A stretch of 64,000 nt of DNA, from NCBI GenBank assembly GCA_965249545.1, contig CBDFMH010000005.1:1095116-1159115 (forward strand), in the 5' to 3' direction. This stretch comes from Pirellulales bacterium (lineage in GTDB: Bacteria; Planctomycetota; Planctomycetia; Pirellulales; UBA1268). Made by a program: the position numbers and the translations under genes. The notes beneath the pieces were generated by a model. The model ran no database searches, was not told where the DNA came from, and saw nothing but the letters and a program-made list of their open reading frames with translations. This document shows, one piece after another, positions 4,764 through 62,481 of the stretch (the stretch's first letter is position 1; the number at the start of each line of letters is the position of its first letter).

Positions 4764-5010
4764 TGTATCACCGGAGAAAACAAAAACCCCTGAAAAATGA
4801 TCGCAGATACACCCTGCCCCACGATCAAAAGACCTAGCAAAGTATACAGTTTTTATGCAGAAATTGTACGATTTTGGAGCATGCTTTTTGTCAGATTTTA
4901 CATGCACTCGCCGGGTTAAAAACTGGCTGAGAGCGTAACAGGTCGTCTACGAAATTTGCACAGGTTCAATCTTCTACCCAAGCCCCAGCCAAAGCGTCAA
5001 GAAAGCTCTC

Positions 5011-43140: not shown

Positions 43141-43410
43141 AGAACCTGTATTTCAGAGTTTTGAGCCGTGATGCCGGTACCGCAGTCGGCGGCCAGAAGG
43201 AAGCATCATACTCTCTGTAAGGAGTCTAGGTTCCCTGACCCGCAGAGTCACCCAAAACTACAAGGTTTTCTATATATAGAGTCATAGAGTCTGGGGTCGA
43301 ACCGATACAAACGACACAAAACCACCAAAAAAGCGTCTAAAAGCAGCTTTTTCAATCTGCGGGGGCCTGAGGGACCGGAGTCGTCGCTGCAGATTCGGTC
43401 TGAGAAAACA

Positions 43411-44727: not shown

Positions 44728-47700
44728 ATGAGGTTTTCTGGCTGGCTTGGATCCGTGCATTTTCTCTTTGCGTCACGATCCGGTGGGTTGAAACGATCTC
44801 GAGTCGGTAAGAGAGATCGCCAGCGCGATCAAAGTGCTTTTCAAAAAGTCGAAGGACTTGAGCCACGAAAAATGCTGGCTTTCGAATACGTGGCTTCGTA
44901 TATCGAAACTGAATCGCCATTTCATCAGGCCGGAGATGTGGCGACACCATCGCTCGATATTTCACCTCAACAGGTTGTTCTGAGGTTTACGCCAGAAACG
45001 GAAATTGACCCATCATCTCTTATTGGGGGAATAACTGTCGAGCGAAGTGGCCGTGCGAATGATCCGTTTGGTGAGACTGGGTCGTTTCAAGATGTCACTG
45101 TTTCTCCTGGTGCAATTGTTGTCGATGATGCCCCAAATGAGAATCAGGTCGTTATCCGCTTTGCAAACAGCCTGCCTGATGATACCTACCAGATTACAAT
45201 CAGTGGTCTGACCACACTCCCGGATGACACGGGTGCTATCGAGCAGTTTAACAATGGTTCATCGATAACAGTTCCATTCCGACTGAGTCTGGGGCCAAAT
45301 GTGGTGTCTGTTGTGCCTCAGCCAATCGATCGTCCGAACCTAGTCGGTGATCCAGAAGATCTCACGCTGAGTCAATCGGCTAATGAGATTGTCGTCTATT
45401 TTGATGGCAGTGAACCGATGGACCAGGCGTCGGTTGAGGATACAAGCCTCTACCAACTCATCGAAATTGATGAGGCCACTGCCGCAGAGCAAGGCGTCGG
45501 TGTGTCCCCTACAGCTGCAACGTATTCGGCTGCAACGAACAGTGTTGCGCTTGAGTTTGCATCAATTGATGACAATAAAACGTTTCGGCTTGAAATAGGC
45601 GGCTCGGGTGTACCTGTTGCGCCTAGTGCTATCGCTGAAGCCGGAGCCGGAACTTCCTTTGCGACCGCTCAGAATGGGCTTGGGGACGTAGTCACACCCA
45701 ATGTCTTGCCCTCTGAAGGGGTTTTGATCGACGGGGTTATCAGTACTATTCCAACAATTACCTCAACTGCACCGGTTGTTGCAGGTGAGAATGAAGAACT
45801 CAATTTCCCTGGCAATGCCGGCTCGATCAACGAATCAGGGCACCGAGACATACCGGTTAATTTGGGCATGGAGCGTCACGGTCAAACTCTTCCTGTAGGC
45901 CCCGCCACCGAAATTCCAACACGGTTCTACAACTTTAGAACGAACTATGGAACAGATCCCCAGGGGCAGCCTCTCGCGAATCAAATTACTGAAACACAGA
46001 AGCAACGAACTCGAGAAATTTTTGAAATCTTCAGTCGATATCTCGGTGTTCAATTTGTTGAATCTGCTGATCTGGCGACACCAGCGAATGACACCATGAC
46101 GATTGCGACTGGTGATTTACGAGCTTTTGATACGACGATTCCGACGACTCCGGCAGGCCTTGCAGGACAGACAAGTGCAGGGAATGTGGCCATCATGGAT
46201 TCAACTGAGAATTGGGGTCTCAGTGAGTATGGTGGGTTCTGGTTCCGAACGGCCATGCAACAGATTGGTGAGCTTCTTGGCCTTCACCATTCATTTGATC
46301 TGCCATCGATCATGGGAGGTGGTTTAAACGGCGAAGCAGTTTTCCCCGGCGACTATGACCTTGTTGAGGCCCGGCAGCTGTTTCCGAATGCTGGGTCAGA
46401 TATTGACCTTTACACGTTCACCTTATCCGGTGACGGGTCGTTTACTGCTGAAACCATAGTGAACCGTCCTGGTGATCCTGTTACCAGTAAACTTGACACC
46501 GTACTCACTCTTTACCGTGAAGATCCGGCCACAAATGAACGGGTTATTGTGGCACGAAATGATGATTCATTTGGAAGTGATTCACGGATCGAATTAGATC
46601 TCACAAAAGAAAACAGTGTGGGTGACGATTTCATTTACTACGTTGCCGTGACGGCAGCAGGCAATGATCAGTTCAATCCGGAGATCGAAGAGAGTGGCTC
46701 CGGTGGACAGAGTCAGGGTGCCTATCAACTTGCGATAAAGCATGTTGATAAGGCGTCATCGACCAATACCGTGACAGATGCAAGTGGAACGCCACTTGAT
46801 GGTGATCGAGACGGTCAAGCCGGTGGAGTGTTTACGTTCTGGTTCCAAACGGCCGAGGCGAGCATAGCACCAACGAACAGAACACTTTATGTCGACAAAA
46901 TTGCAACCGCTGCATGGGCAACGGTCACTACTGAGGCAACAAACACGGCCGAACTTACAGTAGATGATGCCACGGGAATTACCGCTGGCATGCGAGTCTA
47001 TGGCTCGAATATTCCTGAGGGTGTAACTGTTGTTGGTGCGCCTGTTGGAAACGTCATCACCATGAGCGAGGCTATTCCACCAACAGCAATAGTCGCTGCG
47101 AACACAAGCCTTCGATTTGCGACCGCTGAAGTAGATCAGGACGGATCGCTCGCGAACCCATTCACAACAGTGCAGGCTGCAATTACAGAGGCGAATTCAT
47201 TTACTACAGATATTCGAATCATCCGGATTGTCGGAAACGAAGGCAACGAGGTTTCCAGTGGATTGGTGGCAAACTCGAGCTCAGTTGAGAATCCGCATCA
47301 CTACTATGTTGGAAAAGATGACCAGGGAAATATTCTGAGCGATGGTGAAACGTTCATCGTCCCCGCTGGTGTCACCGTGATGATCGATGAAGGTGCGTCA
47401 TTCCGTATGCGACGTTCCATTGTTGAAGTAGGAAGTTCTTCACCACTCTCAGGTGATAGTCGAGCGGGTGCCAGTTTGCAGGTTCTTGGTGTCCCGAATA
47501 AACCGGTTCAGTTTAGTTCGACTGATCGACAGTTTGACGCAAGTGCTGGTCCAGCACCGTTGCGTTCACGTGGGCACTGGGGTGGACTTGTTTTCCGTGC
47601 CGATTCTGATTGGCAGGGAGATGTCGGTCGGGAAGTACTCCGCCCATTTCTGAATACAGTCAACGGTTCAGTAATCAGCTACGGTGGTGGTCAGGCGGTT

Positions 47701-50700
47701 GTTGATTCTCAAACTCAGGCGTTCGCATCCATTCAGATTGAAGGCACCCGGCCAAGTCTTGGGTTCAATACCATTACAACTGCTGCGGGTGCGGCAATTG
47801 CAGCGACGCCGCAGAGCTTTGAAGAGGGGAATGGTCGTATTGGTGTTGATCTACGTGGCAATCAACTCTTTGATAACTCTGTCAATGGCGTCTTCCTTCT
47901 TATTGATACGGAGTTTGGTTCAGGTACTGAAAAACTCGATATTTCAGCACGGTTCAACGACACAGAAGTTGTCCATGTCCTCCAGGAAAATCTCTTTATT
48001 GAAGGTGGGGCTGGTGGATTTGTTCGAGATAGTAATGGTGTTGAGAGCATTCGTCCGAGTGGTCGGCTTCAGATTGATCCAGGTGTTGTCGTCAAATCCT
48101 ATGGTGGTCGCATCGAACTTGAGAGAGGTCGGTCTCAGTTAATTGCCGAAGGCGAGGGGTACGACAAGGTTGTCTTTACGAGTTTTGGAGATAATCGGTA
48201 CGGAGCAGGGGGCACATTTGATTCCAATGGGAACTTGCCAGATACCTACGCTGCTGGTGACTGGGGTGGCATCGTTGGCAATGTTGGGTCGGATATCAGC
48301 ATAGATAATGCCTACCTTGCACATGCCGGTGGCCTCGTTGCGATTGAGGGAGGCTTTGATCGATTCAATGCAATTGAAACGCACCAAGGTGATCTACGAT
48401 TAGCGAATACTCGTATTGAATTTAATGCAGATGGAAATGCAACCGGAACGCGGAATGCACGCGGAGGCAATGAGGCAGCAACAATTTTCGTTCGTGGGTC
48501 ACAGCCGATCATTGCTGGTAACGATCTTCGCAACAACGCCGGGGCAACGATATCGATTAACTCCAACGCACTAACAGATGAAGTGCAGGCTGACTATGGT
48601 CGGCAGACGGGTGAGGTTGAGCGATTTGATCAGTTTGACCTCAATCAGGGGCCACTGATTCGTGAGAATCGAATCTCCGACACTCTTGGAGGAGACTCGT
48701 CGGTCACCAGTGAATTTACAATCGACGTCATTTTTGGCACTGGCTTAAACGCCAATGTAGAAACAGCAACAGCAGCTGCCGTTACCAGATGGGAAGAAAT
48801 TATTATTGGTGATCTGAGTGATCAAGGAGAAATCGATGATTTCCAGATAATAGTTCAAGCCGGTCTGCTCGGGGACCCTGATAGTGACGGTACTGGAGGG
48901 GTGTTGGCTAATGCTGGTCCACGACTCCGACGTTCAGCGAGTGACCCAAATCCATTTCTCCCTTACACGGGCGAAGTTGGTGTCGACATGGCCGACACTG
49001 GCAATGTTCAGCAACTTACTGAGGTCATGATCCATGAACTTGGGCATGCACTTGGGTTTGTAAGTAATGTACTTGATGACTTCAACTACCTCGACGCCAA
49101 CACAAATTTCCTTGGTCCGCAAGCGCTGGCTCAATATCAAAAAGTTAGTCCTGGTGCACAAGCCATTCCAATGCAGGTAGGGGGAAGCCATTGGGATGAG
49201 ACAGAGTTTGGTGTTGAAATCATGACGCCAAGTTGGAACCCAAACAGCGTACTAAGCATGCTCACTGTAGGTCTGTTTGATGACCTTGGTTATGAAGTGA
49301 ACTATGCGAGAGCTGATCCCTACACGACACCTGGTGGTACAGAATTATTCCCACCCGCTGGGGCTTCGGCGGGTAGTGCGATTGCTGGGATGGACATCCG
49401 AGCTGAAGAGGTGACCGGTGAAAAGGTCTGGGATGATGCGGACATCGTTCATGTGCTTCGAGACACTATTGAAGTAAACAATTTTCATACTGAGACAGGG
49501 CTGAAACTTTTAAGTAACAGTCAGTCAAGTCTTGTTGTGAAACTCGATAGTCCAGATGCAGGACTTACAGCCTCTGGTGAAGCACTGGATATTCGTGACC
49601 GGATTGGTGGGTCGGTACAAATCGTTGGTCAGCCAGGTTATCCCGTTGTTCTGACATCACTGGCGGATGATACCGTGGGTGCAAGCCTTGATATCAATGG
49701 CTTTCCAGTCTTTGATACGAATGCCGACGGCACAGATTCAACGCCTTCGGCAGGAGATTGGAGAAGCCTGAAGTTTGACCCACTTTCAAACGATCGAAAT
49801 GTGGGAGTTTTTATTGAGTCAGAGCGGGCGTATACGGCAGGTCTTGATGTAAACAATACTACCAATGTTGCAGAATACGTCGGCATCATCGCACCAAACA
49901 ACCCAGAGACCAATCTTGTTGGTCAAACGAACACGTTTGAATCAACGCAGGAAAAAAATGGTGACGATGCTCAGCGGCTCGGTTTTGAAGTGCACGGTAC
50001 CATTGCCGCTGATGACCCAACGGATGTCGATGTCTACTCGTTCTACGGTTATGGTGGATCTGAGGTTTGGTTTGACATCGATAAAACTTCAGATGCATTA
50101 GATACCCAACTGGAAATTCTTGACGCCAGCGGGAATGTCTTAGCACGATCATTTGACTCAATGAATGATATTGGCGTTGCCCGAGCAAATGCATCAGCAG
50201 ATGTGGCAGAAAATGCCGGTGGTGAAGCAATTGTTGTGGGGCCTGAGCAGGTAGTTACGGGCGTCGTTGGCGTTGCCAATGGTATTGCTGCTGCTGTTGA
50301 AGGTGTTGAGCAGGCAGTGACTGGTGTTGTTGGTGTTGCCAATGGTGTTGCTGCTGCTGTTGAAGGTGTTGAGCAGGCAGTGGCCGGTGTTGTCGGCCTT
50401 GCAAATGGTGTTGCTGCCGAGGTGAATGGATTCGAGGCCAATGCAATAGGTGTGTGGGCAGAAATTGACGCAGTACAGACCGACGTAACTACGCTCACGA
50501 TTGATACCAATACTTATAACGATCAGCTTGTCGGCGCTGCTGTTCTTAGGAACGGTGCGCCTGAAGGGCTCACTGTAACCGGCATCGAAGGGGATGCGGT
50601 AAGTCTTTCTGGGACGATAACTGTAGCCGTGGATGATATCGTCAGCTTTATTTTCCCAAATGCCACTGCGGTAACGACTAATCGTATTGTCCTTGATGAC

Positions 50701-51384
50701 GCCAGTGGTGTTGTGAATGCCGTCAAAGTGGTGGGTACAGGTATAACAGGGCTGACTCGGGTCAGTGACTCCGACCTGCCGAGTGATACGGTCGAGTTGT
50801 CGGAGCAAATCAGTGTTTCGAATGCCAGTAGTTTTGGATTCGGCTTTAACTCTGACACTATCACGCTTGATACGAATGACCTTGATGGCGCGGTAGCAGG
50901 CGCAGTAATTGCTGTAAATGGCGTGGCTACGGTTTTCACTGTTGATAGCATTGCAGCTGGCAGTCTGACTGTGACGGCACCAGGTACTCTTGATGTTGCC
51001 GACGGCGACGTGCTTGGCTTTGCGTTTGCTGGAGCTCCAGTCACAACAGATCACATTCGTGTCGATGATGCAGCCTTAGCAACTGTTGGTGCAGCCGTCA
51101 CGGTAAACGGTGTTGCAACTGGTGAGACGGTTGCAGCTGGTGGTATCGACCTTGTTGCGAACACTGTTCGTCTGAGCGGTGATATCACGATAGAAGATGC
51201 TGACTTCGTTGACTTCTCGTTTGCTGGCACGAAGACCACAACTCGTGTCACAGTTGGTGACGCAACCGGCATTGCAGAAGGCGTTCTTGTAAACGGTGCG
51301 GTTGGTATCGATCGGCCGGAACACGTGTTGCGGTTGGTGGACTCGATCTGTTTAACCCGCTTGATCCGACAGCTGGTGCAGTGA
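44728..51384 (+). CDS. Giant secreted multidomain protein, part 1 (degenerate metzincin-like motif, PPC-like domains, beta-helix region, leishmanolysin/M8-like domain, repeat modules)
   Basis: The N-terminus is ...KRDRQRDQSAFQKVEGLEPRKMLAFEYV. Other motifs: MQQIGELLGLHHS (46252-46295), DIDLYTFTLSGDG... (PPC-like), VMIHELGHALGF (49033-49059 holds HELGHALGF) plus GGSHWDETEFGVEIMTP. The last ~23 codons are out of frame after a 2-nt insertion at 51314-51315. Confidence 0.8.
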   Translation: MRFSGWLGSVHFLFASRSGGLKRSRVGKRDRQRDQSAFQKVEGLEPRKMLAFEYVASYIETESPFHQAGDVATPSLDISPQQVVLRFTPETEIDPSSLIGGITVERSGRANDPFGETGSFQDVTVSPGAIVVDDAPNENQVVIRFANSLPDDTYQITISGLTTLPDDTGAIEQFNNGSSITVPFRLSLGPNVVSVVPQPIDRPNLVGDPEDLTLSQSANEIVVYFDGSEPMDQASVEDTSLYQLIEIDEATAAEQGVGVSPTAATYSAATNSVALEFASIDDNKTFRLEIGGSGVPVAPSAIAEAGAGTSFATAQNGLGDVVTPNVLPSEGVLIDGVISTIPTITSTAPVVAGENEELNFPGNAGSINESGHRDIPVNLGMERHGQTLPVGPATEIPTRFYNFRTNYGTDPQGQPLANQITETQKQRTREIFEIFSRYLGVQFVESADLATPANDTMTIATGDLRAFDTTIPTTPAGLAGQTSAGNVAIMDSTENWGLSEYGGFWFRTAMQQIGELLGLHHSFDLPSIMGGGLNGEAVFPGDYDLVEARQLFPNAGSDIDLYTFTLSGDGSFTAETIVNRPGDPVTSKLDTVLTLYREDPATNERVIVARNDDSFGSDSRIELDLTKENSVGDDFIYYVAVTAAGNDQFNPEIEESGSGGQSQGAYQLAIKHVDKASSTNTVTDASGTPLDGDRDGQAGGVFTFWFQTAEASIAPTNRTLYVDKIATAAWATVTTEATNTAELTVDDATGITAGMRVYGSNIPEGVTVVGAPVGNVITMSEAIPPTAIVAANTSLRFATAEVDQDGSLANPFTTVQAAITEANSFTTDIRIIRIVGNEGNEVSSGLVANSSSVENPHHYYVGKDDQGNILSDGETFIVPAGVTVMIDEGASFRMRRSIVEVGSSSPLSGDSRAGASLQVLGVPNKPVQFSSTDRQFDASAGPAPLRSRGHWGGLVFRADSDWQGDVGREVLRPFLNTVNGSVISYGGGQAVVDSQTQAFASIQIEGTRPSLGFNTITTAAGAAIAATPQSFEEGNGRIGVDLRGNQLFDNSVNGVFLLIDTEFGSGTEKLDISARFNDTEVVHVLQENLFIEGGAGGFVRDSNGVESIRPSGRLQIDPGVVVKSYGGRIELERGRSQLIAEGEGYDKVVFTSFGDNRYGAGGTFDSNGNLPDTYAAGDWGGIVGNVGSDISIDNAYLAHAGGLVAIEGGFDRFNAIETHQGDLRLANTRIEFNADGNATGTRNARGGNEAATIFVRGSQPIIAGNDLRNNAGATISINSNALTDEVQADYGRQTGEVERFDQFDLNQGPLIRENRISDTLGGDSSVTSEFTIDVIFGTGLNANVETATAAAVTRWEEIIIGDLSDQGEIDDFQIIVQAGLLGDPDSDGTGGVLANAGPRLRRSASDPNPFLPYTGEVGVDMADTGNVQQLTEVMIHELGHALGFVSNVLDDFNYLDANTNFLGPQALAQYQKVSPGAQAIPMQVGGSHWDETEFGVEIMTPSWNPNSVLSMLTVGLFDDLGYEVNYARADPYTTPGGTELFPPAGASAGSAIAGMDIRAEEVTGEKVWDDADIVHVLRDTIEVNNFHTETGLKLLSNSQSSLVVKLDSPDAGLTASGEALDIRDRIGGSVQIVGQPGYPVVLTSLADDTVGASLDINGFPVFDTNADGTDSTPSAGDWRSLKFDPLSNDRNVGVFIESERAYTAGLDVNNTTNVAEYVGIIAPNNPETNLVGQTNTFESTQEKNGDDAQRLGFEVHGTIAADDPTDVDVYSFYGYGGSEVWFDIDKTSDALDTQLEILDASGNVLARSFDSMNDIGVARANASADVAENAGGEAIVVGPEQVVTGVVGVANGIAAAVEGVEQAVTGVVGVANGVAAAVEGVEQAVAGVVGLANGVAAEVNGFEANAIGVWAEIDAVQTDVTTLTIDTNTYNDQLVGAAVLRNGAPEGLTVTGIEGDAVSLSGTITVAVDDIVSFIFPNATAVTTNRIVLDDASGVVNAVKVVGTGITGLTRVSDSDLPSDTVELSEQISVSNASSFGFGFNSDTITLDTNDLDGAVAGAVIAVNGVATVFTVDSIAAGSLTVTAPGTLDVADGDVLGFAFAGAPVTTDHIRVDDAALATVGAAVTVNGVATGETVAAGGIDLVANTVRLSGDITIEDADFVDFSFAGTKTTTRVTVGDATGIAEGVLVNGAVGIDRPEHVLRLVDSICLTRLIRQLVQ
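50245..50433 (+). repeat. Three tandem 63-bp (21-aa) in-frame repeats
   Basis: The units are EQVVTGVVGVANGIAAAVEGV, EQAVTGVVGVANGVAAAVEGV and EQAVAGVVGLANGVAAEVNGF. They start at 50245, 50308 and 50371. Confidence 0.85.
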
Positions 51385-52612
51385 TCGAACTTGATGCACC
51401 AGTTGATATTCTGAACACCGACACCATTGGGTTCGGCTTTAACTCTGACACCATCACGATTGATACAAACGACCTTGATGGTGCGGTTGCAGGTGCAGCC
51501 ATCACCCTAAATGGTACTGCGACTGGTGAAACAGTAACCGGCATTGCGGCTGGTGAGCTCACGGCTAGCGGTGATATAGATGTTGCTAATGATGACGTGC
51601 TTGGCTTTGCGTTTGCTGGAGCTCCAGTCACAACAGATCACATTCGTGTCGATGATGCAGCCTTAGCAACTGTTGGTGCAGCCGTCACGGTAAACGGTGT
51701 TGCAACTGGTGAGACGGTTGCAGCTGGTGGTATCGACCTTGTTGCGAACACTGTTCGTCTGAGCGGTGATATCACGATAGAAGATGCTGACTTCGTTGAC
51801 TTCTCGTTTGCTGGCACGAAGACCACAACTCGTGTCACAGTTGGTGACGCAACCGGCATTGCAGAAGGCGTTCTTGTAAACGGTGCGGTTGGTATCGATC
51901 CCGGAACACGTGTTGCGGTTGGTGGACTCGATCTGTTTAACCCGCTTGATCCGACAGCTGGTGCAGTGATCGAACTTGATGCACCAGTTGATATTCTGAA
52001 CACCGACACCATTGGGTTCGGCTTTAACTCTGACACCATCACGATTGATACAAACGACCTTGATGGTGCGGTTGCAGGTGCAGCCATCACCCTAAATGGT
52101 ACTGCGACTGGTGAAACAGTAACCGGCATTGCGGCTGGTGAGCTCACGGCTAGCGGTGATATAGATGTTGCTAATGATGACGTGCTTGGCTTTGCGTTTG
52201 CTGGAGCTCCAGTCACAACAGATCACATTCGTGTCGATGATGCAGCCTTAGCAACTGTTGGTGCAGCCGTCACGGTAAACGGTGTTGCAACTGGTGAGAC
52301 GGTTGCAGCTGGTGGTATCGACCTTGTTGCGAACACTGTTCGTCTGAGCGGTGATATCACGATAGAAGATGCTGACTTCGTTGACTTCTCGTTTGCTGGC
52401 ACGAAGACCACAACTCGTGTCACAGTTGGTGACGCAACCGGCATTGCAGAAGGCGTCCTTGTAAACGGTGCGGCGGGTATCCCAGACGGTACACGTATTG
52501 CGGCAGGTGGACTCGACCTATTTGACACGCTTGATCCGACAGCTGGCGCAGTGATCGAACTTGATGCACCAGTTGATATTCTGAACACCGATACCATCGG
52601 GTTCGGCTTTGT
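51007..52612 (+). repeat. About 2.7 tandem copies of a 585-bp (195-aa) in-frame repeat, near-identical
   Basis: The string ggagctccagtcacaacagatcacattcgt occurs at 51031, 51618 and 52203. The spacings are 587 (including the 2-nt insertion) and 585. The peptide GFAFAGAPVTTDHIRVDDAALATVGAAVTVNGVATGETVAAGGIDLVANTVRLSGDITIEDADFVDFSFAGTK... recurs. Confidence 0.9.
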
Positions 52613-55600
52613 AGCTGACACCATTACAATTGATGACATTACCGATATCAGTATTGGTTCACCCGTCGGCGGAGAAGGTGTTGATCCAGGAACAACTGTT
52701 CTGAGTGTCGACGGAATAAATAATTTAATTGGGTTTGGTGATACAGGCGATCCTGCAGTGGCGAGGACCGTTAATGTTGCTGATGGTGCACAGATAACAT
52801 TCGCCCAGCGTGGCTTTAATTTGGATCATTCCAATATTCTGCCTGGAACGCTTGCTGGTGTTATCTATCAGGGCAATACGGCAACGCAGGAATTTTCTGT
52901 AGCCAGAGATGGAACGTTCGCGTTCACTGCTATTGGTGATCCGGTCAGCGAAGCAACAAGTGAATCGTCTGTTGATCTTATGACTGGTGTTGTAACGCTC
53001 GAATTTGATGTGCCGCCAACAGCATCTCTCGAATTACGTGATCTTTCCTACGAATTTTCCCGTGTTCCTCTTGATGCTGATGGGCTGGCCTTCCTGCCAA
53101 ATGGTGATCTTGGTGCATACTCACTCAACAAAGATGCTCACCGTGGTCCAGACTCATATTCCTCGAATCCGCGAGATGCTGGGCTGCGGATGACTCTGCC
53201 GGGAGTTGCAGGGAGACAATCACAGTATTTTGTTCGGGTAAGAAGCCAGGCTGAAGCCGGTACACCTGTAGATACAGTTGATGCAGGCAAGACAAGTGGA
53301 CGGTACCAGCTCCGCATGCGTCTTCGACAGCAAGATGAAAAGCCAGGTTCAGTCGTAACCTTTGCAGATGTTCGCTATGCGACAACGGGTATTGATGTAA
53401 CCGGCCTGCCGAATAACACACCACTTACGGGTACGGCAGGGGAAGACAAAACAGCGAATGATACGTCCTCAGCTGCCCAGCAGTTGGGTAATCTACTGGC
53501 GATTGATCGAAATACAATCAGCGTTGCTGGCGACATGAGTAATGCGACGGATGTCGACTGGTACGAATTCGAGGTGGACTACGAGCAGATTCAGGTTCTT
53601 GAAGATATTAATGATGGCACCAAAACCTGGGCGACAACCTTCGATATTGATTTTGGTTCTGGCGTTCGTGGTGATTACACGATTTCTGTATTTGATGCCG
53701 ATACCAATGAACTTATTTACGTAGGTCGTGATTCGAATATTGCAGACGATGTAGCAGATCCTTCACAGGGTAATACCGATGCTGATGATCTGACTCGAGG
53801 CTCTGCAGGCGTGAATGATCCGTTTATCGGAACAGTGCAACTGACTGAGGGCACATACTATGTTGCCGTGTCGACAAATGCACAGCTACCAAATCAGTTG
53901 GACCAGAACTTTGAAAGTACTGCGACGAATCCAGATGTTCGCCTTGAGCCACTGTCGTCACTCAATCGAATTGTCGACGACAAGATTGGTTTAGCGGGCT
54001 ATTTCCGAGAAGCCAGCGTCCTTGGTCCAGCTCAGAATGAAGGCAGATCGGTCATCAGTACCGCGGATGGTTTTGCACTGCAAGCCAATGTGCAGCCATT
54101 TACGCTTGCCGACATGACAGTTTTTCTTACTGAGGGTAACAGACTGAGAACGATCAATCCATTTACGGGAGTCGCTGACACTCAGCCAGCAGGATACACC
54201 TACGCAGGTAATCAATCAGCGGCCGATATTGATATGCTCAGCGATGGTCGCCTTGTGGTGTATATGAATGAGGGAAGCGCGGCAAATGTTGGTACGGTCT
54301 ATGAGATCGATCCAGCGACAGGTGGTCGAACCCAACTGTGGGGAGATTCGATTCCAAACCGGCCAGGTGATCCGCAACCAACGGACTATTGGAAAACGAA
54401 TAGTAGTCCAGACGCTTTGGCAATCGGTTATTCAGGAGTTGCTGTATACAATGCAGGCTCAAACAACGTAGGGTCAGCTGATTCGGCCACCTATTACGCT
54501 GTCCGTGATGGAAACTCGTCAAGGATTTATGGTGCAGATACGAATGGTAATGCGTCGTCGAATACAGCTGCTAATCCTGCACACCGGTTTGGTTATATGG
54601 GCGATGTTGATCCGACTATTACAAGTCCTACCGTCGGATTGCAGTTCTTGAATGAGAATAAAGATTTAGGCCTCTTTGCAGTCAGTCGCGACGGACAATT
54701 CTTCAGATTGGAACAACGAGGCCATGGTGGGGAAAATCCCCCACAAGGCACGCTCGACGTCTTCAATGTAGTCGACTTTAATACCCCCGAGATTCTTAAT
54801 GGCCGACAACTCGGTGGGCTGGCCACTGGGCCTGTCAATCTCGAGGGTGGAAGGTTCGCTGGTACGTTCTTTGCTGTTACAACCGATGGGGAGCTTTTCT
54901 GTATCGACCCAACTGGCGGTGCCGGTGGAGAGCCGGTGATTGTTGATAACGTCTTTGATTCTGATGGTGATGGTATCGCCGACAGCTGGATTTCGAATGC
55001 GACAGGTAATGGTGTAAGGGGCCTCGCATTCTCGCCACTTGATGTGAATCTGTGGCACCCGACAAACGATCGATCTGACAATATTACATCATCAACTACT
55101 CATGATTTGACGCGGGTAGGTACTGTAACTGGCGGCCAGAGCATGCATTTTGGTCTTGAAGAATGGGTTGCTGGGAACACGCCGTATGTTGAATACACAG
55201 ATGTTGATGGCGGCCAGGCTGGCCAGTTCGGTGTTCGCAGTAGTGGTGTCTGGCAGCGGCACCTGAGTGCAGGACTTGATATCTCTGAATCAACTTATGA
55301 TCTACCGGGTGGGGCACACGGCAGAATGCAGACAGACGCATTTAGCCTGGCTGGGTACACCGCCACGGACAAGCCGACGTTGTACTTTTCATATTGGTTG
55401 GAAACTCAGGACGCACAGGACAATGAGGCTGGAGCAGATGTCATGCGGGACAGTGCACGAGTTCTTGGGTCCGTAGACGGTGGTGCAACGTGGGAACTGT
55501 TGGCAACGAATAATCAGCAGAGATCGGCACTCGATGGTGGTGTTCAGGCCGAATTGCCGCCACGACTCACTCCGTCAGCCAATGCTGCAAATGCAGGGTC

Positions 55601-58600
55601 AGATGCAAGTGAGAAGCAACAGGTGCAAGAACTCTTTGACACCGCCGAGTGGCGGCAGGCACGTGTTGATCTTGGTCAATTTGCCGGTGCGAGTTCAGTG
55701 CTTTTGCGATTTGATTTCAGTACCGGTGGTGACCTCGACCGTCGTGGTGAAATCAATAACGCCAAGATCGTTGCAGATGCAACACGATCAGTTGTGTCAG
55801 TCACTGCGATTGGGAATCTAGAAAACGATGTAACAGTTGAGCTCGATAGTGTGCAGGGGCTTGTCGAAGTTGTTGGTAATATAGCGAAACCAAATGCTGA
55901 AATAGTTATTGATGCGACTGAAAGCTCAACAGGCACAGCAACGGTGATCTCTATCGATACAGTAGCGAATACCGTTGTGCTAAGGCCGACTGATGTCGCT
56001 GTTGAACTTGAAGATGTATACGGGGGTGGCGACCTTATTGATTTCTTCAGTGCCGGTGTGAACCGAGATGATATCCAAGGTCTTGGTAGTGAACTCGGAG
56101 ATTTTGGAAGCCCCACCGCACGAAGCGAAGACAATAACTATCGCGGATTCAATATTGATAATATCACCGTTGGATTCGCAGAGCGTGGTGAGGCTGTTGT
56201 CAACGCAAGTTCTGAAGCGAATGAACAATTCTTCAGCTTCAATGAAGATCGCTCAACCTTTGATTACCCAGAGCAGGTCCTGCAAGGTGAGTATCAACTT
56301 GAAATTCGTCGTGGGTCTGAGTTTGGTAGTCAAGACAATGAAACGATTGGGTTTCTCGATCCAACCCTCCCTGGCGTGCCAGTCGATGGTGTGACCATCA
56401 ATACGACATTTGACACGAATGACCGAATGGTTCGAGAAACTGCGGTTATTTCACATGAACTTGAGTTTAATTCCCTGGATGTTGTAGATGGTGTTGTTGT
56501 AACTGAAGCTGGTCATACCGTCGTAAACGGTGGTCCACCGGGAGGGGGACAAGGTACGCGCTTGGAGGGTGACGGGGCAACTAACACAACGCAGCACAGT
56601 GTTTTGAAGTGGGCGGTCGATCTCGCAAACCAACCTGCAGCGATTCTCGAATTGAACTACTCGGTTGATGAAGATGAACGACTGACGCAACTGCCGGACG
56701 CATTTACAATTGATGATGAAACTGACCTCCCAACCGGAGACGGTGTGGCTCTCAGTGTAGACGGCGGAATCAACTGGACCCGAATCGCCAATTTCTCTAC
56801 GACTACAACTTTTCGGGGTTTTGGTACGTATGAAACGACACTGGAGGTCGATCTTGGCGGGGCAGGCCTCGTGCTGAGTGATACGACTGTCATTGGCGTC
56901 TTCCGTTCCGATGCAAACGAGGGCGGTATAACAGTCCGAAATGCAGTTATTCGTACTGCTCCGGTTATTGCAACGTCGGGTCTTGTTGGTGACAAGAACA
57001 ATGAGTTTGAAAACCAGCAAGGGCAGTTCATTGTTCAGAATACGATTGTGACAGATGCATCAACCTACGGCATCCGTATTGATGCCGGACGAGTTGGTGA
57101 CGGAAGCCAGTCGCCTGATCTTGGTGTTGCCCAGAATCGTGCTGTTCTCAATAACGCAGGTCTCGTGCCGGGTGCGGTTGTGACCAATACTGTTGTCGCC
57201 AATGCTGGGGTTGCCGGCATCTATTTTGGTGGTTCAGCCGATACAGCAAATGATACAGATAGTGTTCGGCCGTATGGTCGTCTGGTGAATAACACAATCT
57301 ACGGTGGTGGGAGTGGCATTGGTATTGATGTCGCAAACAATGCTGCACCAACAATCATGAACAATGTCTTTTCGGAATTAGACACTGGCGTCAAAGTTGA
57401 TTCATCAAGCAGACTTGACGGTGCCGGTGATGCCAGCACCGTGATTGGCACGAGTGCCTTCTATCTTGTTGGGACAGAAGTTGATGGGGCAAATCAGTCG
57501 CTGGGCCTTACACTGACCGAAGATCCATTCGTCAATAAAGCACGGAACAATTTCTATCCTGCAGCGAATTCTCGGATCATAGATAGTTCCATGAATTCAC
57601 TTGAGGATCGACCAGGATTTACTGTCGTAAAAGATGCCATCAATATTCCTGATTCACCAATTCTTGCGCCTCAGAAGGACTTGTATGGATTGACCCGTGA
57701 CGATGACCCGGATGTTGCAAGCATTCCTGGTTTGGGTCTCAATGCATTTAAGGATCGTGGAGCAATTGAACGGCTCGATCTCACTCAGCCGGAAGCCACT
57801 CTGGCGTCTCCATTGGACCAGTCAAAGATTGCTCCGGTCGACCTGAACAATACAGTCCATGCAGTGGAGTTGGAAGGTGATGCAGCTCGTCAACAAGAAA
57901 AATTTGTTCTCCAGCTTTCTGATATTGGTACTGGAATTGATCAGGTCAGTGTGACACAAAATGAGGATACCAGCGTGACGGTCACAGGTGTCTTTGCACG
58001 AGCCTCTGGTGACTTTGTAAACCTCGACACACTTACGCTTGATACAGTTGGCTACAGTGGTCTTTTGGCAAACGCATCAGTGTCGATTAATAACGTCGAC
58101 GCTGGAGTCACTGTTACAAGCATTGCAGGGACGACACTCACGCTCAGCGGCCCTGTCACAGCAGTTGATAATTCAGTGATCTCGTTTGGGTTTGGGGATA
58201 CACCAACGGTTTCAACGAATCGACTAGTTGTGAGCGATGCTGCTTCGGTGAGTGCCGGTGTCTTGATTAACGGCATCAGCGGTGTCGCTACTGCAAATGC
58301 GATTGCTGCTGTTGATTCAACAATGAATACGATTGAACTTGAGGAAGCAGCGTCTGTCGTGAGTGACGCCGAAGTGACACTCACCGCGTTCCTCCTCCAA
58401 CGAGACGGTCAGGTTCTTGAGGCCGGAAACGACTATTTCTTCCAGTACAACACCAATACAAATCAGGTTGTATTCGCTGCAGCGTCAACCTTCACGCTTG
58501 GTGACTACAACCTGCGAGTGGCACCAACGGTACAGGACCTTGGTGGAAATACACTCCTTGTCAACGATTCGGTTACTGGGACAACGGAATTTAGTATCGT

Positions 58601-60956
58601 CTTGCTCGATATACCAAGCGCACCGTCTGCACCACTTGGTGTCTCCGGTGACGAGCAGGTGACGCTGTCATGGGGTGTGCCATCAACATCAGTAAGTGCA
58701 CCGATTACAGACTACATCATTGAAACCAGCGTTGATGATGGAGTGACATGGGTGGCATTTGATGACGGTACCTCAACTCTCACGACAGCAACGGTCACAC
58801 AACATGATGGAGTCGATCTACAGAATGGCACTCCGTATCGCTTCCGGGTCCTAGGCGTCAATAGAGTAGGGAATGGTGAGTTTTCACCACAATCTGCTGC
58901 CATCACACCACTTCGCCTGCCGACCGCCCCTCTGAATCTGGCTGTTGTTTCTGGTAATGCGGCACTGGACTTCTCGTGGACTGCCCCCACAGATGACGGT
59001 GAAGATTTGGCCGGCACAGATTCAATTGTGGATTATGTCGTTGAATATTCTTCAGACGCTGGGGTGACGTGGACGGCGCACACGCCAAATCCAACAACGA
59101 CATCTACAACAGTAAGCGGTTTGACTGGTGGAGTTGAATATCTGCTGCGAGTCGCAGCAAGAAATGCTCGTGATCAGGGGCCTTATGCGACAACAACCGT
59201 GACGGAAACACCGCAGGGTGTGCCTGGACTGGTACAAAACATGACACTTGTTGCAGGAGTTGGAGCAGTCACGTTGGACTGGGACCCTGGTACAGACGGC
59301 GCCGTTGGTATTGATGAGTATGTTGTGAGGTTCTCAATTAATTCGTTGGCTTTTGTTGATGATAATTGGAACTCAAATGTTCCAGGCCCTGTAACAGAAT
59401 CTGGTTTAAGCACTGGTGATACTGTTGTTGCAGAAGTGTTTGCAAGGAACACTATCGGGGATGGACCTGTTGCAACATCGAACACGGTGGTCGTGGGAGG
59501 TACTCCTAGTGTTGTGACCGGCCTGGCGTTCACTGAAGAAGATGGTGCGATTAGCCTCAGTTGGGTAGCTCCGGCCGACACGGGCGGATACCCAGTGACT
59601 GATTACATCATCGAATCGACGAATAATGGCGGAGCGAATTGGGTCGCTGAGTCAGACGTCTCAACAGCAACGTCCGTAACGATAAGCAGCCATAATGGTG
59701 TACCGCTTGTGAATGGAAATGAGTATTCATTCCGTGTCAGTACGAAGACGTCGATTGCCACTGGCAGTTCAACTGAGATTACCGGTGGTCCTGCTGTGCC
59801 ACATACAGTGCCGAGTGCCCCTGTGTTGAGTACACCAACGTCGGGCAATGGTTCAATCGGCATTACATGGTCAGCCCCTGACAATGGCGGAAAGCCAATT
59901 TCGGACTATGTTGTCCAGTACAAGCGTGCTTCTCGAACGCAATGGGAGACGTTTACTGATGGAACGTCGACCGCGACATCAGCAACAATCACCGGTGTCA
60001 ATAATGGTGTTTCATATGTCGTGCGAGTCGCTGCGGTGAATCCAAAAGGCCAGGGAGCGTGGTCAGCAGAATCAACAAGCGTTGTGCCGGGTAATGTCCC
60101 AGATCAAATTACCGATTTGGCAGCATCGGCACAGGATGGAGCCGTCGCCTTGACGTGGACTGTCCCAGCATCAACACTGACAGTCACAAGTCACCAAATT
60201 CAATATAAGAAACAGTCAGATCCAACGTGGGCAACCTTTGATGGCACCATTGCGATTGAAGAGTCAGTAGCGACGGCCACAGTGGCAGGGTTAGACAACG
60301 GTGTTGTCTATAACTTTGAAGTCGTTGCAGTGAACGCAGTTGGTTCTTCATCCGCAGCTACTGTTTCAGCCGAACCGTTTGAATTGCCTGGTGTTGTGCA
60401 AAATCTCACAGCATCAAATGCCGGAAGCACTGTCAATCTGACTTGGAGTGCTCCTACGTCAGACGGTGGTAGTGATATCACGGACTATGCTGTTCAATAC
60501 AGGCTAGCGAGTAGTTCGACGTGGCTTACATATACTGACGGAGTTTCTACAGGCCTCTCAGCAAATGTAGCCGGGCTTTCTGTTGGTCAATCGTATGAGT
60601 TCCAGGTTGCTGCAATCACACGCTTCGGAACGGGTGCATACGCACAGTCAGGGACTGTTACCGTTGGATCAGTAGCACCAGCACCCGCTCGAGTGAGTGC
60701 ATGGCGAGAGGGTAATAATATTCAGGTGCTGTGGGATCTAGTGACAATGCCCGCAGGTGTAACCTTCCAGTATTATCAGATTCAGTATCGGGAGGTAGGT
60801 ACAAGTGCGTGGTCTAATATTGCGACAGACACATTTAATAGCGAGCTACTCTCTGGCAGTCACTTTACACGCGGCAAGACGTATCAGTTCCAGGTGGCAG
60901 CTGTAGCGAATACTGGAACAGGAGCCTACAAGGTATCAAACAACGTCACCTACTGA
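51381..60956 (+). CDS. Giant secreted multidomain protein, part 2 (repeat modules, PPC-like domain, beta-propeller/beta-helix-like regions, 8 C-terminal fibronectin type III domains)
   Basis: The frame is open from ~51316 and continues the repeat unit interrupted in part 1. Other evidence: DVDWYEFEVDYEQI...GTYYVAVS (PPC-like) and PbH1-like rungs (VVTNTVVANAGVAGIYFGG, LVNNTIYGGGSGIGIDV, IMNNVFS). From ~58612 there are 8 units of the form P.AP..L......V.L.W..P...G..I.DY.V.Y. Confidence 0.8.
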   Translation: MIELDAPVDILNTDTIGFGFNSDTITIDTNDLDGAVAGAAITLNGTATGETVTGIAAGELTASGDIDVANDDVLGFAFAGAPVTTDHIRVDDAALATVGAAVTVNGVATGETVAAGGIDLVANTVRLSGDITIEDADFVDFSFAGTKTTTRVTVGDATGIAEGVLVNGAVGIDPGTRVAVGGLDLFNPLDPTAGAVIELDAPVDILNTDTIGFGFNSDTITIDTNDLDGAVAGAAITLNGTATGETVTGIAAGELTASGDIDVANDDVLGFAFAGAPVTTDHIRVDDAALATVGAAVTVNGVATGETVAAGGIDLVANTVRLSGDITIEDADFVDFSFAGTKTTTRVTVGDATGIAEGVLVNGAAGIPDGTRIAAGGLDLFDTLDPTAGAVIELDAPVDILNTDTIGFGFVADTITIDDITDISIGSPVGGEGVDPGTTVLSVDGINNLIGFGDTGDPAVARTVNVADGAQITFAQRGFNLDHSNILPGTLAGVIYQGNTATQEFSVARDGTFAFTAIGDPVSEATSESSVDLMTGVVTLEFDVPPTASLELRDLSYEFSRVPLDADGLAFLPNGDLGAYSLNKDAHRGPDSYSSNPRDAGLRMTLPGVAGRQSQYFVRVRSQAEAGTPVDTVDAGKTSGRYQLRMRLRQQDEKPGSVVTFADVRYATTGIDVTGLPNNTPLTGTAGEDKTANDTSSAAQQLGNLLAIDRNTISVAGDMSNATDVDWYEFEVDYEQIQVLEDINDGTKTWATTFDIDFGSGVRGDYTISVFDADTNELIYVGRDSNIADDVADPSQGNTDADDLTRGSAGVNDPFIGTVQLTEGTYYVAVSTNAQLPNQLDQNFESTATNPDVRLEPLSSLNRIVDDKIGLAGYFREASVLGPAQNEGRSVISTADGFALQANVQPFTLADMTVFLTEGNRLRTINPFTGVADTQPAGYTYAGNQSAADIDMLSDGRLVVYMNEGSAANVGTVYEIDPATGGRTQLWGDSIPNRPGDPQPTDYWKTNSSPDALAIGYSGVAVYNAGSNNVGSADSATYYAVRDGNSSRIYGADTNGNASSNTAANPAHRFGYMGDVDPTITSPTVGLQFLNENKDLGLFAVSRDGQFFRLEQRGHGGENPPQGTLDVFNVVDFNTPEILNGRQLGGLATGPVNLEGGRFAGTFFAVTTDGELFCIDPTGGAGGEPVIVDNVFDSDGDGIADSWISNATGNGVRGLAFSPLDVNLWHPTNDRSDNITSSTTHDLTRVGTVTGGQSMHFGLEEWVAGNTPYVEYTDVDGGQAGQFGVRSSGVWQRHLSAGLDISESTYDLPGGAHGRMQTDAFSLAGYTATDKPTLYFSYWLETQDAQDNEAGADVMRDSARVLGSVDGGATWELLATNNQQRSALDGGVQAELPPRLTPSANAANAGSDASEKQQVQELFDTAEWRQARVDLGQFAGASSVLLRFDFSTGGDLDRRGEINNAKIVADATRSVVSVTAIGNLENDVTVELDSVQGLVEVVGNIAKPNAEIVIDATESSTGTATVISIDTVANTVVLRPTDVAVELEDVYGGGDLIDFFSAGVNRDDIQGLGSELGDFGSPTARSEDNNYRGFNIDNITVGFAERGEAVVNASSEANEQFFSFNEDRSTFDYPEQVLQGEYQLEIRRGSEFGSQDNETIGFLDPTLPGVPVDGVTINTTFDTNDRMVRETAVISHELEFNSLDVVDGVVVTEAGHTVVNGGPPGGGQGTRLEGDGATNTTQHSVLKWAVDLANQPAAILELNYSVDEDERLTQLPDAFTIDDETDLPTGDGVALSVDGGINWTRIANFSTTTTFRGFGTYETTLEVDLGGAGLVLSDTTVIGVFRSDANEGGITVRNAVIRTAPVIATSGLVGDKNNEFENQQGQFIVQNTIVTDASTYGIRIDAGRVGDGSQSPDLGVAQNRAVLNNAGLVPGAVVTNTVVANAGVAGIYFGGSADTANDTDSVRPYGRLVNNTIYGGGSGIGIDVANNAAPTIMNNVFSELDTGVKVDSSSRLDGAGDASTVIGTSAFYLVGTEVDGANQSLGLTLTEDPFVNKARNNFYPAANSRIIDSSMNSLEDRPGFTVVKDAINIPDSPILAPQKDLYGLTRDDDPDVASIPGLGLNAFKDRGAIERLDLTQPEATLASPLDQSKIAPVDLNNTVHAVELEGDAARQQEKFVLQLSDIGTGIDQVSVTQNEDTSVTVTGVFARASGDFVNLDTLTLDTVGYSGLLANASVSINNVDAGVTVTSIAGTTLTLSGPVTAVDNSVISFGFGDTPTVSTNRLVVSDAASVSAGVLINGISGVATANAIAAVDSTMNTIELEEAASVVSDAEVTLTAFLLQRDGQVLEAGNDYFFQYNTNTNQVVFAAASTFTLGDYNLRVAPTVQDLGGNTLLVNDSVTGTTEFSIVLLDIPSAPSAPLGVSGDEQVTLSWGVPSTSVSAPITDYIIETSVDDGVTWVAFDDGTSTLTTATVTQHDGVDLQNGTPYRFRVLGVNRVGNGEFSPQSAAITPLRLPTAPLNLAVVSGNAALDFSWTAPTDDGEDLAGTDSIVDYVVEYSSDAGVTWTAHTPNPTTTSTTVSGLTGGVEYLLRVAARNARDQGPYATTTVTETPQGVPGLVQNMTLVAGVGAVTLDWDPGTDGAVGIDEYVVRFSINSLAFVDDNWNSNVPGPVTESGLSTGDTVVAEVFARNTIGDGPVATSNTVVVGGTPSVVTGLAFTEEDGAISLSWVAPADTGGYPVTDYIIESTNNGGANWVAESDVSTATSVTISSHNGVPLVNGNEYSFRVSTKTSIATGSSTEITGGPAVPHTVPSAPVLSTPTSGNGSIGITWSAPDNGGKPISDYVVQYKRASRTQWETFTDGTSTATSATITGVNNGVSYVVRVAAVNPKGQGAWSAESTSVVPGNVPDQITDLAASAQDGAVALTWTVPASTLTVTSHQIQYKKQSDPTWATFDGTIAIEESVATATVAGLDNGVVYNFEVVAVNAVGSSSAATVSAEPFELPGVVQNLTASNAGSTVNLTWSAPTSDGGSDITDYAVQYRLASSSTWLTYTDGVSTGLSANVAGLSVGQSYEFQVAAITRFGTGAYAQSGTVTVGSVAPAPARVSAWREGNNIQVLWDLVTMPAGVTFQYYQIQYREVGTSAWSNIATDTFNSELLSGSHFTRGKTYQFQVAAVANTGTGAYKVSNNVTY

Positions 60957-60993: not shown

Positions 60994-62481
60994 TTACCAG
61001 CGGCCTTCGAGCCCAAGTGTAAGGCCTTGGACAACTGTGCCACCGTCTTGAAGAACCAGTGGATCACCTGTTGTTGAGACAGGCAATGAGAGTTGTCGAG
61101 TTGGCTGGGCAATGCCTTGAAGCCAGAACACAAGATAACCAAACCGAAAATTAAGATTTGAGGTAAGTGGCATCACACCAGTGAACCCAAGTTCACCTAC
61201 GAACGCTGCTGGCGAGGGTGAGTCATATCCCGATATCTCAACACCAGCTCCGTTTTGCTGATAAATTTGTCGAGAGAGTGCCTCGTTCCAGTAGGCTCCA
61301 CCTTTAAGAACCGACTCAACGTGCAGCCAGCGGTTCGAGTACAGCAGGGCATCGATACCGATCTGGCCACCGTAGAGATTGTTCACCGTTCGAGAGGACC
61401 AGTCATCAGTAACGATTGGACCCGTAGTTGTATCGAGTGAAAATGATTCAGTCCATTCGAGCCAGCGAACGCCACAGATGAACTGAACATTTCCAGCCGC
61501 CATCGGAGTTCGACTGTTCACTTCGATTGTTTGAATGCTGCTGGTCAGATTTGCAGTGCCAGTTTCAAAACTTGTACTCGCTCCAATTAGGTCACTAGCA
61601 GCATATGCGGACAAGGCACCAGTGTCAGGTAGCAGTTTTTCGCTTTGGAAGCTCCAGGCGCCGAGGTACCCAAACTCGATGGCACTACCGCAGGCATCTT
61701 TACGAAAGAGTTGGATACGCGGGCCAGCTGCCATGCCACTTTCTAATTGATTCGCATTTAAAATTGAGGATCCAACTGGCCCTGGGCCAGTGATAACAAG
61801 TTCCCTGCTGTATGGTGCACTTCGCCACAGCATGACGGCTTCGGCACGGCCTGTCCAACAGGCTGGTCCGCAGCAACGGCAGCCTTTTTTGCATGTATGG
61901 AGGAGATTCATGTGACCGCAAGCATCTTTGCAGGCAGTGCCCCATGTGTTCATGCTATGCGTCCAGTCCCAGCCACTGTCCGTATCGCAGACTGGTGGAG
62001 CGTAGAGACCACCAGTATCGCCAGAGACGACCCACTCAGATTCGAGATCATCAACATATCTTGCTTCTGCATCATCGATGACAGAAACCGATGCACCTTC
62101 AGAGGACCAGCTGCTGTCGTCATCCGCATCTTCTGCAATGGGTTGAAGGATCGACTGGGTGCTTTCTTCACCGACTATTCCATCAAACGATAGTGCTCCA
62201 GACGCCAACTGTGAAGGGTCCGGTGCAGTGCGTGGTGCACGTTCCCTCGATATAGGAGCGGGAGTCTGTCTGTCTTCAACAATGTATTCAGCGGCACCTG
62301 CCATCTTTATGATGGGACTGAGTCCTATGAATAAGACGACTATGGCAAGGAACAGTCTGGTGAGAGTTGCTGCTCTCCGACCAATGACACTCCTGCAATG
62401 CCTGATCAATTGACGGCTCATGATGGCAACGATTCCGCTCTGTGTTGGAAAAATCCGAAACATCTCCGTGATCATCGTCAT
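60994..62481 (-). CDS. Putative outer-membrane beta-barrel protein (BBP7-like) with Cys-rich N-terminal region
   Basis: It has a signal-anchor-like LTRLFLAIVVLFIGLSPIIKMAGA and a Cys cluster CKDACGHMNLLHTCKKGCRCCGPACW. The C-terminal half alternates hydrophobic and polar residues and ends ...GLTLGLEGRW (aromatic terminus). The start is uncertain. Confidence 0.45.
   Translation of the reverse strand: MTMITEMFRIFPTQSGIVAIMSRQLIRHCRSVIGRRAATLTRLFLAIVVLFIGLSPIIKMAGAAEYIVEDRQTPAPISRERAPRTAPDPSQLASGALSFDGIVGEESTQSILQPIAEDADDDSSWSSEGASVSVIDDAEARYVDDLESEWVVSGDTGGLYAPPVCDTDSGWDWTHSMNTWGTACKDACGHMNLLHTCKKGCRCCGPACWTGRAEAVMLWRSAPYSRELVITGPGPVGSSILNANQLESGMAAGPRIQLFRKDACGSAIEFGYLGAWSFQSEKLLPDTGALSAYAASDLIGASTSFETGTANLTSSIQTIEVNSRTPMAAGNVQFICGVRWLEWTESFSLDTTTGPIVTDDWSSRTVNNLYGGQIGIDALLYSNRWLHVESVLKGGAYWNEALSRQIYQQNGAGVEISGYDSPSPAAFVGELGFTGVMPLTSNLNFRFGYLVFWLQGIAQPTRQLSLPVSTTGDPLVLQDGGTVVQGLTLGLEGRW

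Follow-up and report, generated by a model that had tools for sequence, protein, structure and literature searches.

Two very long open reading frames (ORFs) meet head to tail within a 64,000-nt stretch of contig CBDFMH010000005.1 (positions 1,095,116–1,159,115; hereafter the window) from a Pirellulales bacterium. Do they encode one giant protein, two proteins, or the pieces of a gene that has recently been broken? The original prediction, made from the sequence of the window, treated them as a single gene for a surface protein of about 5,400 aa. The ancestral unity of the gene is borne out by the comparisons below, while the frame is interrupted as assembled by an insertion of 2 nt. On balance, we favour the view that the locus is one gene of a giant extracellular protein family, widespread in Planctomycetota, whose frame is broken in the current assembly.

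A 2-nt insertion in a tandem repeat separates the two frames

The coordinates of the ORFs are those of the original prediction; the frame break was located by repeat alignment.

44728..51384, + strand: ORF1, 2,218 codons, frame 1
51381..60956, + strand: ORF2, 3,191 codons counted from the first in-frame GTG, frame 3
51314..51315, + strand: GG insertion of 2 nt relative to the sister repeat copies, the frame break

The TGA stop codon of ORF1 overlaps the GTG of the ORF2 frame, the shared nucleotides being GTGA. Because the ORFs lie in different frames, which the original prediction did not state, no single 5,400-aa protein can be read from the sequence as it stands. The ORF2 frame is open already from 51261, and homologous reading can be followed back to about 51316; the text GTRVAVGGLDLFNPLDPTAGAVIELD, read in this frame from about 51316, is found two more times within ORF2. 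A 585-bp tandem super-repeat, part of an array of ~60-aa modules described below, runs across the ORF1/ORF2 junction. Its copies start near 50974, 51561 and 52146, so that the first spacing is 587 nt as against 585 nt for the second. Alignment of the first copy with the second and third places the extra GG precisely: copy 1 reads GATCGGCCGG and copy 2 reads GATCCCGG, with both flanks identical, and the stretches flanking the GG are 100% identical to the next repeat copy. The tail of ORF1 from 51316 onwards consists of 23 out-of-frame codons read through after the insertion.

Deletion of the GG in silico yields a single open frame of 5,408 codons. An uninterrupted ORF of 3,300–5,600 codons is absent from the locus as assembled and appears only after this deletion. 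The predicted length of ~5,400 aa is thus correct for the repaired frame only. On the evidence of the repeat and of the relatives described next, ORF1 and ORF2 represent the two halves of a single gene that ancestrally had about 5,400 codons; whether the organism produces the full protein depends on whether the GG insertion is real.

Relatives carry the gene as a single ORF

The source genome is a 3.39-Mb metagenome-assembled genome (MAG) of five contigs, 92.75% complete. Its host clade consists of uncultured marine Pirellulales, with members from the Black Sea, Saanich Inlet and Tara Oceans. In G006, a MAG of the same genus and one of 30 relatives compared, the gene is one open frame of 5,205 codons with 84–89% identity, module array included; this MAG is fragmented. 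The closest metagenomic relative, P0003, has a single ORF of 4,537 aa on a k141-type contig, with start and stop present and 87% identity. Length varies among relatives, a comparison that the original prediction had proposed, and so does the size of the array.

When the non-repetitive core of ORF2 served as query, 306 of the candidates scored matched at E ≤ 1e-3, the best 120 of them all at E ≤ 1e-149. The non-partial proteins among the matches listed are mostly 3,300–5,600 aa long, and many combine Peptidase_M10, Peptidase_M8, PPC, Beta_helix and fn3 domains. Homologues are annotated variously as ‘fibronectin type III domain-containing protein’, ‘pre-peptidase C-terminal domain-containing protein’ or ‘NF038122 family metalloprotease’. 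The core (PPC-like block, propeller and following domains) is collinear with these homologues, with 43–88% identity over 1,141 aa; across the uncharacterised planctomycete giants, identity over this core spans 37–88%.

Planctomycetota are known for their giant genes (reviewed in PMC12673574). By homology and domain order, the locus is an unremarkable representative of a planctomycete giant-protein family that is known but uncharacterised. It has in common with other such giants (P0003, P0015 and G006:C373) an N-terminal motif, the core domain order, a length of 3,300–5,600 aa and a Pirellulales host. It differs from them in that its lineage lacks the catalytic residues of the first (M10-like) metzincin site and in that its frame is broken in the current assembly; from its close relatives it differs in having an array of 12–13 modules, which is absent or differently formed in them.

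Is the insertion real?

We somewhat favour the interpretation that the GG is an error made when the consensus was built or polished, or else a minority variant, the region being repetitive and heterogeneous between strains. The ratio of nonsynonymous to synonymous polymorphism (pN/pS) in the half of the gene downstream of the break is 0.143 against a strain 98.6–98.9% identical in nucleotides and 0.152 against G006; the corresponding values for the upstream half are 0.055 and 0.108. The 3,191 downstream codons contain no second lesion and show no relaxed constraint. Since the downstream half is under purifying selection, the lesion must be either very recent or an assembly error. Furthermore, strains differ in the array, so that a consensus is risky there, and sister long-read contigs in the same clade are rich in frameshifts. 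Two other frame-broken genes in the window, one BtuF-like and one a cyclophilin fusion (see below), also point to an artefact.

The chief alternative, to which we give rather less than an even chance, is that the GG is real and fixed, making the locus a very recent pseudogene or split gene. ORF1 would then yield a truncated exported protein of ~2,200 aa with both protease-like domains and half of the array, while the other 3,191 codons would either not be translated at all or be read from a fresh start at the GTGA overlap, giving a product that lacks the export motif. The insertion is, after all, present in the given sequence, and a GTG in the ORF2 frame is overlapped by the ORF1 stop. Three observations tell against an artefact. 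First, the insertion lies outside any homopolymer, which is atypical of long-read error. Second, the overall rate of frameshifts in the assembly is low: 2 frameshift-like junctions were counted among 132 orthologues in the window genome and 1 among 142 in a fragmented (about 150-contig) same-genus MAG that we take to be short-read, although the reciprocal count was made against 250 kb of the fragmented MAG, and 2 versus 1 are too few to decide. Third, frame junctions are not enriched at homopolymers genome-wide (0.4–0.5%, equal to random positions), which lends no support to the idea of a noisy assembly. The break in the neighbouring BtuF-like gene, whose copy in a relative is intact, could likewise be taken in favour of a real insertion.

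Nevertheless, a pN/pS of 0.14 that equals the long-term value, over 3,191 codons without a further lesion, would require the inactivation to be extremely recent. Same-genus relatives keep a single ORF, the lesion sits in a near-identical repeat of a strain-variable region, where consensus errors concentrate, and no Shine–Dalgarno-like sequence precedes the GTG at 51381. We judge an artefact or minority variant to be slightly more likely than a fixed, very recent frameshift. Scans for promoter and terminator consensus sequences gave fewer matches than shuffled sequence and none near 51381. An exact-pattern scan of Joint Genome Institute (JGI) metagenome contigs returned no match to the junction either with or without the GG.

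Regulated expression through programmed recoding (a –1 or +2 ribosomal frameshift), or through phase variation by slipped-strand mispairing, is very improbable. The frames overlap over 51261–51384, so that a shift anywhere in this interval would fuse them, and the region is repetitive and strain-variable. However, continuity is restored exactly by a 2-base deletion at one site set by the sister repeats, which is the mark of a mutation or an error and not of a recoding signal. The site has no X XXY YYZ slippery heptamer and no simple-sequence tract (Tandem Repeats Finder (TRF) reports only a 63-nt repeat elsewhere), and the single ORFs of the relatives need no shift. Programmed frameshifting was rejected on these grounds.

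That two independent genes abut here, one for an N-terminal protease-bearing protein and one for a separate FN3-bearing protein, is the least probable reading of all: some public assemblies do split homologous loci (calls P0007, 2,006 aa; P0005, 2,893 aa, beginning at the IELDA motif; and P0004), but such calls come from noisy or low-coverage long-read contigs (ctg1390; ctg137143_3.94x) that break up into many short ORFs and so are no evidence for separate genes, ORF2 has no N-terminal motif of its own, and the idea is refuted by the continuity of the repeat unit across the junction together with the single ORFs on the k141 contig of P0003 and in the fragmented MAG G006.

Several other frame breaks were seen in passing. 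The BtuF-like gene (43248–44356, – strand), for a periplasmic binding protein, has a frameshift at a T7/A7 run at 43826–43832; its first piece covers positions 1–133 of 235 of the Peripla_BP_2 profile, and the orthologue in L049 is intact at 321 aa. At 34647–37717 (– strand) a cyclophilin (Pro_isomerase) ORF is followed by a repeat-rich ORF with a weak W_rich_C match; the two abut in different frames near 36781 and have the appearance of a single gene for a secreted fusion protein, disrupted by an indel; its N-terminus carries a LEPKQLLA-type motif, as in the giant protein. Two long ORFs at 683–4907 (– strand; 785 and 668 aa), neither with a Pfam match, share 140 nt in different frames and may be another frame-broken large gene. 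Outside the window, frameshift-like junctions relative to orthologues in G009 lie at C5:689362–689420 and C3:162466–162493, one of which adjoins a T8 run.

Domain composition

The domains of the repaired protein are listed below. All lie on the + strand, and residue numbers here and in the text refer to the 5,408-aa protein joined in silico. Profile cut-offs are 25.9 bits for both PF04151 (PPC) and PF13229 (beta-helix); HMM denotes a hidden Markov model built from the repeat.

44728..44892: N-terminal motif, residues 1–55 (W-L-x-S-V..L-F, a basic stretch, then LEPRKMLAFEYV)
44893..45747: conserved N-terminal region, originally called Ig-like
45991..46314: M10 (matrixin)-like block, about residues 422–529, with degenerate zinc site QQIGELLGLHH
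46390..46767: PPC-like block 1 (DIDLYTF)
46936..47127: single copy of the ~60-aa module (HMM)
47128..48627: putative first beta-helix region; very weak PF13229 match (E 0.75, 9.9 bits) at its 3′ end
48751..49317: leishmanolysin (M8)-like or NF038122-like domain, about residues 1342–1530, with intact HELGHALGF (49033–49059), SHW and EIMTP
50020..50307: PPC-like block 2 (DVDVYSF); PF04151 E 7e-4, 20.8 bits, below cut-off
50244..50417: 2.8 copies of a 63-nt (21-aa) Gly/Val/Ala-rich repeat (TRF)
50488..52730: array of 12–13 modules as A-B-C triplets, including about 2.7 near-identical 585-bp super-repeats (HMM, repeat analysis)
53688..54080: PPC-like block 3 (DVDWYEF); PF04151 E 0.055, 14.8 bits
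54048..55070: six-bladed beta-propeller (AlphaFold2, Foldseek)
55098..55790: all-beta domain that follows the propeller; conservation within the family is strong
57033..57410: putative right-handed beta-helix (PbH1-type NNTI...GI repeats); PF13229 E 5e-4, 20.1 bits, below cut-off
58020..58367: two further module copies (HMM)
58632..60953: eight FN3 domains, the protein ending directly after the last (PF00041 and translation)

The domain list of the original prediction was mostly correct. The basic N-terminal motif is present and is kept family-wide as ...LExLExRxxMAFDxV after a short hydrophobic stretch and a basic run; it is not a classical Sec or Tat signal. About ten large ORFs in the window genome have a similar non-classical N-terminus, with a basic run and LExRx[LM][LM] (among them those at C5 1013500, 1178649, 1906183, 2210217, 2309100, 2579942, 2967256 and 3010272), and the pattern may mark a planctomycete-specific class of exported proteins.

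Both metzincin-like domains were read correctly. In the first, QQIGELLGLHH replaces the HEIGHxLGLxH of most full-length homologues, so that the HExxHxxGxxH zinc motif that defines M10 is missing from the window protein. This degeneration is shared only with the nearest relative, a partly degenerate form occurring in P0009 and P0010. The PF00413 score of 29.2 bits for the whole protein is made up of two weak stretches; taken by itself, the block reaches 17.3 bits and so falls short of the 24-bit cut-off. The second, leishmanolysin-like domain passes PF01457 (25.5–29.6 bits against a cut-off of 21, profile positions 213–333 of 529), while its score with NF038122, 30.5 bits against a cut-off of 80 over positions 143–171 only, leaves it outside that family. 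It shares with leishmanolysin (GP63, M8) and NF038122 ‘metallo_LGF’ proteins the HExxHxxGF motif, a third histidine ~55 residues downstream (SHW) and a Met-turn-like EIMTP; it differs from leishmanolysin in matching about 120 of the 529 profile positions and in being embedded in a 5,400-aa protein.

The propeller that had been thought probable at ~54.0–55.1 kb stands out in an AlphaFold2 model of ORF2 residues 560–1700 (38-sequence alignment), in which it has a predicted local distance difference test score (pLDDT) mostly of 80–90 and the remainder is of low confidence. It superposes on solved six-bladed propellers with a Foldseek probability of 1.0; matches include 3no2, HHIP, the LRP6 YWTD domain, PpgL and regucalcin (E 1.7e-5 to 1e-3, 280–390 aligned columns). 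For the all-beta domain that follows, Foldseek offers no structural clue beyond a weak resemblance to the InhA2 (M6) peptidase at rank 50. The FN3 domains score 200.7 bits with PF00041; seven stretches pass alone, and all eight of the predicted units are readable in the translation. As predicted, the protein lacks a recognisable C-terminal sorting tag: Pfam and NCBIfam scans of the last 691 aa gave no match to PEP-CTERM, the type IX secretion (T9SS) C-terminal domain, LPXTG or others at E ≤ 0.05. There is likewise no HemolysinCabind or related Pfam match that would suggest RTX proteins or type I secretion (T1SS), the C-terminus being FN3, and the profile scans matched neither a C-terminal barrel translocator nor an N-terminal two-partner secretion domain.

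A strain-variable array of an unnamed module

The ~60-aa module, for which the original prediction had no name, occurs in many copies, as it had stated: the HMM finds 15–16, with one at residues 737–783, 13 in 1921–2667 and two at 4431–4546, besides degenerate traces near 3688–3751; a stricter six-frame scan gives 15. A name was found in neither Pfam (copies searched one by one, best E 0.035) nor the PDB sequences (profile search, best E 1.6). In an AlphaFold2 model of three modules (pLDDT 75), each module has five strands, and the three are arranged as beads on a string. Foldseek with this model gave a best E of 0.3 against the PDB and, against BFVD, one match below 1e-3, to an uncultured phage protein with a low TM-score; the model weakly resembles modules of phage tail fibres and tailspikes.

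Searched with the module profile, 1.84 billion cluster representatives yielded 1,436 matching proteins (E ≤ 1e-3), of which 272 reach E ≤ 1e-10; a single protein may hold as many as 21 copies. The module-bearing clusters, defined at 50% identity, number about 1,400. The named hosts include hypothetical proteins of Planctomycetota and Verrucomicrobiaceae, PATR (‘autotransporter-associated beta strand’) proteins, one RHS/YD protein, one PEP-CTERM protein and several Flagellin_N/FlgL-like proteins. Judged by this profile search, the module is not peculiar to the giant gene; its presence in so many unrelated hosts makes it a promiscuous extracellular repeat, unnamed in the libraries searched.

The central array holds 12–13 modules in the window, 12 in L049, 9 in G006 and none in P0003. 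The A-B-C triplet order recurs in proteins only about 45% identical (P0010, P0011, P0018 and P0019). By this comparison the order is old and the near-identical 585-bp copies in the window are recent. In L001, the strain whose flanks are 98.6–98.9% identical, the array is replaced by divergent modules of which one is above the HMM threshold, and the protease domain is a divergent allele that retains HEIDHILGF...HW...EVMTP. The divergent segments, 3702–4425 and 5221–8171 of L001, correspond to 48689–49378 and 50168–53112 of the window. This mosaic suggests recombination together with diversifying pressure on exposed parts of the protein.

A conserved BBP7-family neighbour

A gene for a putative outer-membrane barrel lies 38 nt beyond the stop codon of the giant gene on the opposite strand. 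It is given here with its counterparts beside FN3-tailed giants in relatives.

60994..62481, – strand: convergent BBP7-family outer-membrane beta-barrel, 495 aa (or 436 aa), with a Cys-rich N-terminal part and the ending LEGRW
18921–20246 in L050: BBP7-family neighbour
18743–21546 in L051: BBP7-family neighbour
20161–21684 in L054: BBP7-family neighbour

Synteny was the other comparison that had been proposed. A homologous barrel directly adjoins the giant gene in G006, L001 and L049 and in three more distant lineages (P0015, P0057 and P0027), whose giants are 39–44% identical to that of the window. The adjacency of BBP7-family barrel and FN3-tailed giant is conserved in four lineages; the relative orientation varies, the two genes being co-directional in some cases, and in one case the barrel gene is duplicated. 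Among the roughly five BBP7-like genes in the window genome, the best match of each neighbour barrel is the copy in the window.

The giant/BBP7 pair is adjoined by a gene (62809–63999, – strand, running off the window; 17874–23861 in L001) that encodes a UvrA-like ABC ATPase, duplicated and about 2,000 aa long, and that keeps its position in the distant relatives L050 and L051.

Proposed function

We infer export, surface location, proteolysis and a partnership with the BBP7 barrel from sequence; of these, the surface location is a reasonable inference from the domain types and the family context. The whole protein would be a long, beta-rich fibre, surface-exposed or secreted. Its family-specific basic N-terminal motif probably directs export, and the stalk of eight FN3 domains and the ~60-aa modules would act as spacers. 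The beta-helix, propeller, PPC-like and jelly-roll-like domains probably bind polymers or particles. The leishmanolysin-like zinc protease, which appears to be active, would cleave protein, and the inactivated M10-like pseudo-protease may now be a non-catalytic scaffold or binding domain. The BBP7 barrel next door may hold the giant protein or serve as an export conduit.

Several results weigh against parts of this reading. The N-terminal motif matched no Pfam or NCBIfam model and literature string searches found no paper on it; in an apparently relevant paper on polymorphic toxins, planctomycetes figure only in the taxon lists. The putative Ig-like modules at the N-terminus have no Pfam match. 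Three PPC-like domains had been predicted, but blocks 2 and 3 match PF04151 weakly and block 1 not at all, although homologues carry this domain. Of the two predicted beta-helix regions, the second has a weak match and the first next to none; here too homologues carry PF13229, and the NNTI...GI periodicity is readable in the translation. Finally, no BBP7 pairing was found at dockerin- or cadherin-tailed homologues or in more distant genomes, and the adjacency could be inherited synteny because the giant UvrA-like gene is conserved nearby too.

Giant repetitive adhesins of other bacteria include LapA, SiiE and the ice-binding adhesin of Marinomonas. The window protein resembles them in its great length, its beta-rich make-up with tandem Ig/FN3-like extenders, its presumed ligand-binding domains and its presumed role in surface attachment. 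In contrast to them, it has no RTX repeats, C-terminal T1SS signal or retention module in Pfam scans, and it has a different N-terminal motif and metalloprotease domains.

Giant genes in Planctomycetota are known but functionally unexplored, and this locus is a well-resolved example from uncultured marine Pirellulales. It illustrates how one indel within a repeat leads annotation pipelines to split a locus into two or more ‘genes’, and how an old family can hold both dead and live metzincin domains, as judged by their sequence motifs. The strain-variable array points to diversifying pressure at the cell surface. While the main observation is itself ordinary, the wide distribution of the module, the exchange of cassettes between strains and the BBP7 pairing are worth following, and the conserved neighbour could explain how giants without a signal are displayed. 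A more far-reaching proposal, which we regard as rather unlikely, combines two ideas: that the module is an undescribed, widespread extracellular tandem-repeat domain and, in this species, a cassette swapped or expanded between strains, and that FN3-tailed giants, BBP7 barrel and N-terminal motif together form a planctomycete-specific route of export or anchoring. If true, it would define a hot spot of surface variation, like the hypervariable regions of flagellins, and a display route for giants without known sorting signals.

The module also leads beyond this locus, to flagellin-like proteins. Tandem copies of it occur in PATR proteins and in the hypervariable outer part of flagellin/FlgL-like proteins, of which Geobacter sp. 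OR-1 WP_052440365.1 is an example. These and the RHS hosts have only the module in common with the giant protein, the scaffold being a Flagellin_N helical core, PATR repeats or RHS repeats. In four Flagellin_N/FlgL-like proteins from other phyla, including Geobacter sp. OR-1 (P0133, P0134, P0142 and P0154), 7–12 tandem modules lie downstream of Flagellin_N.

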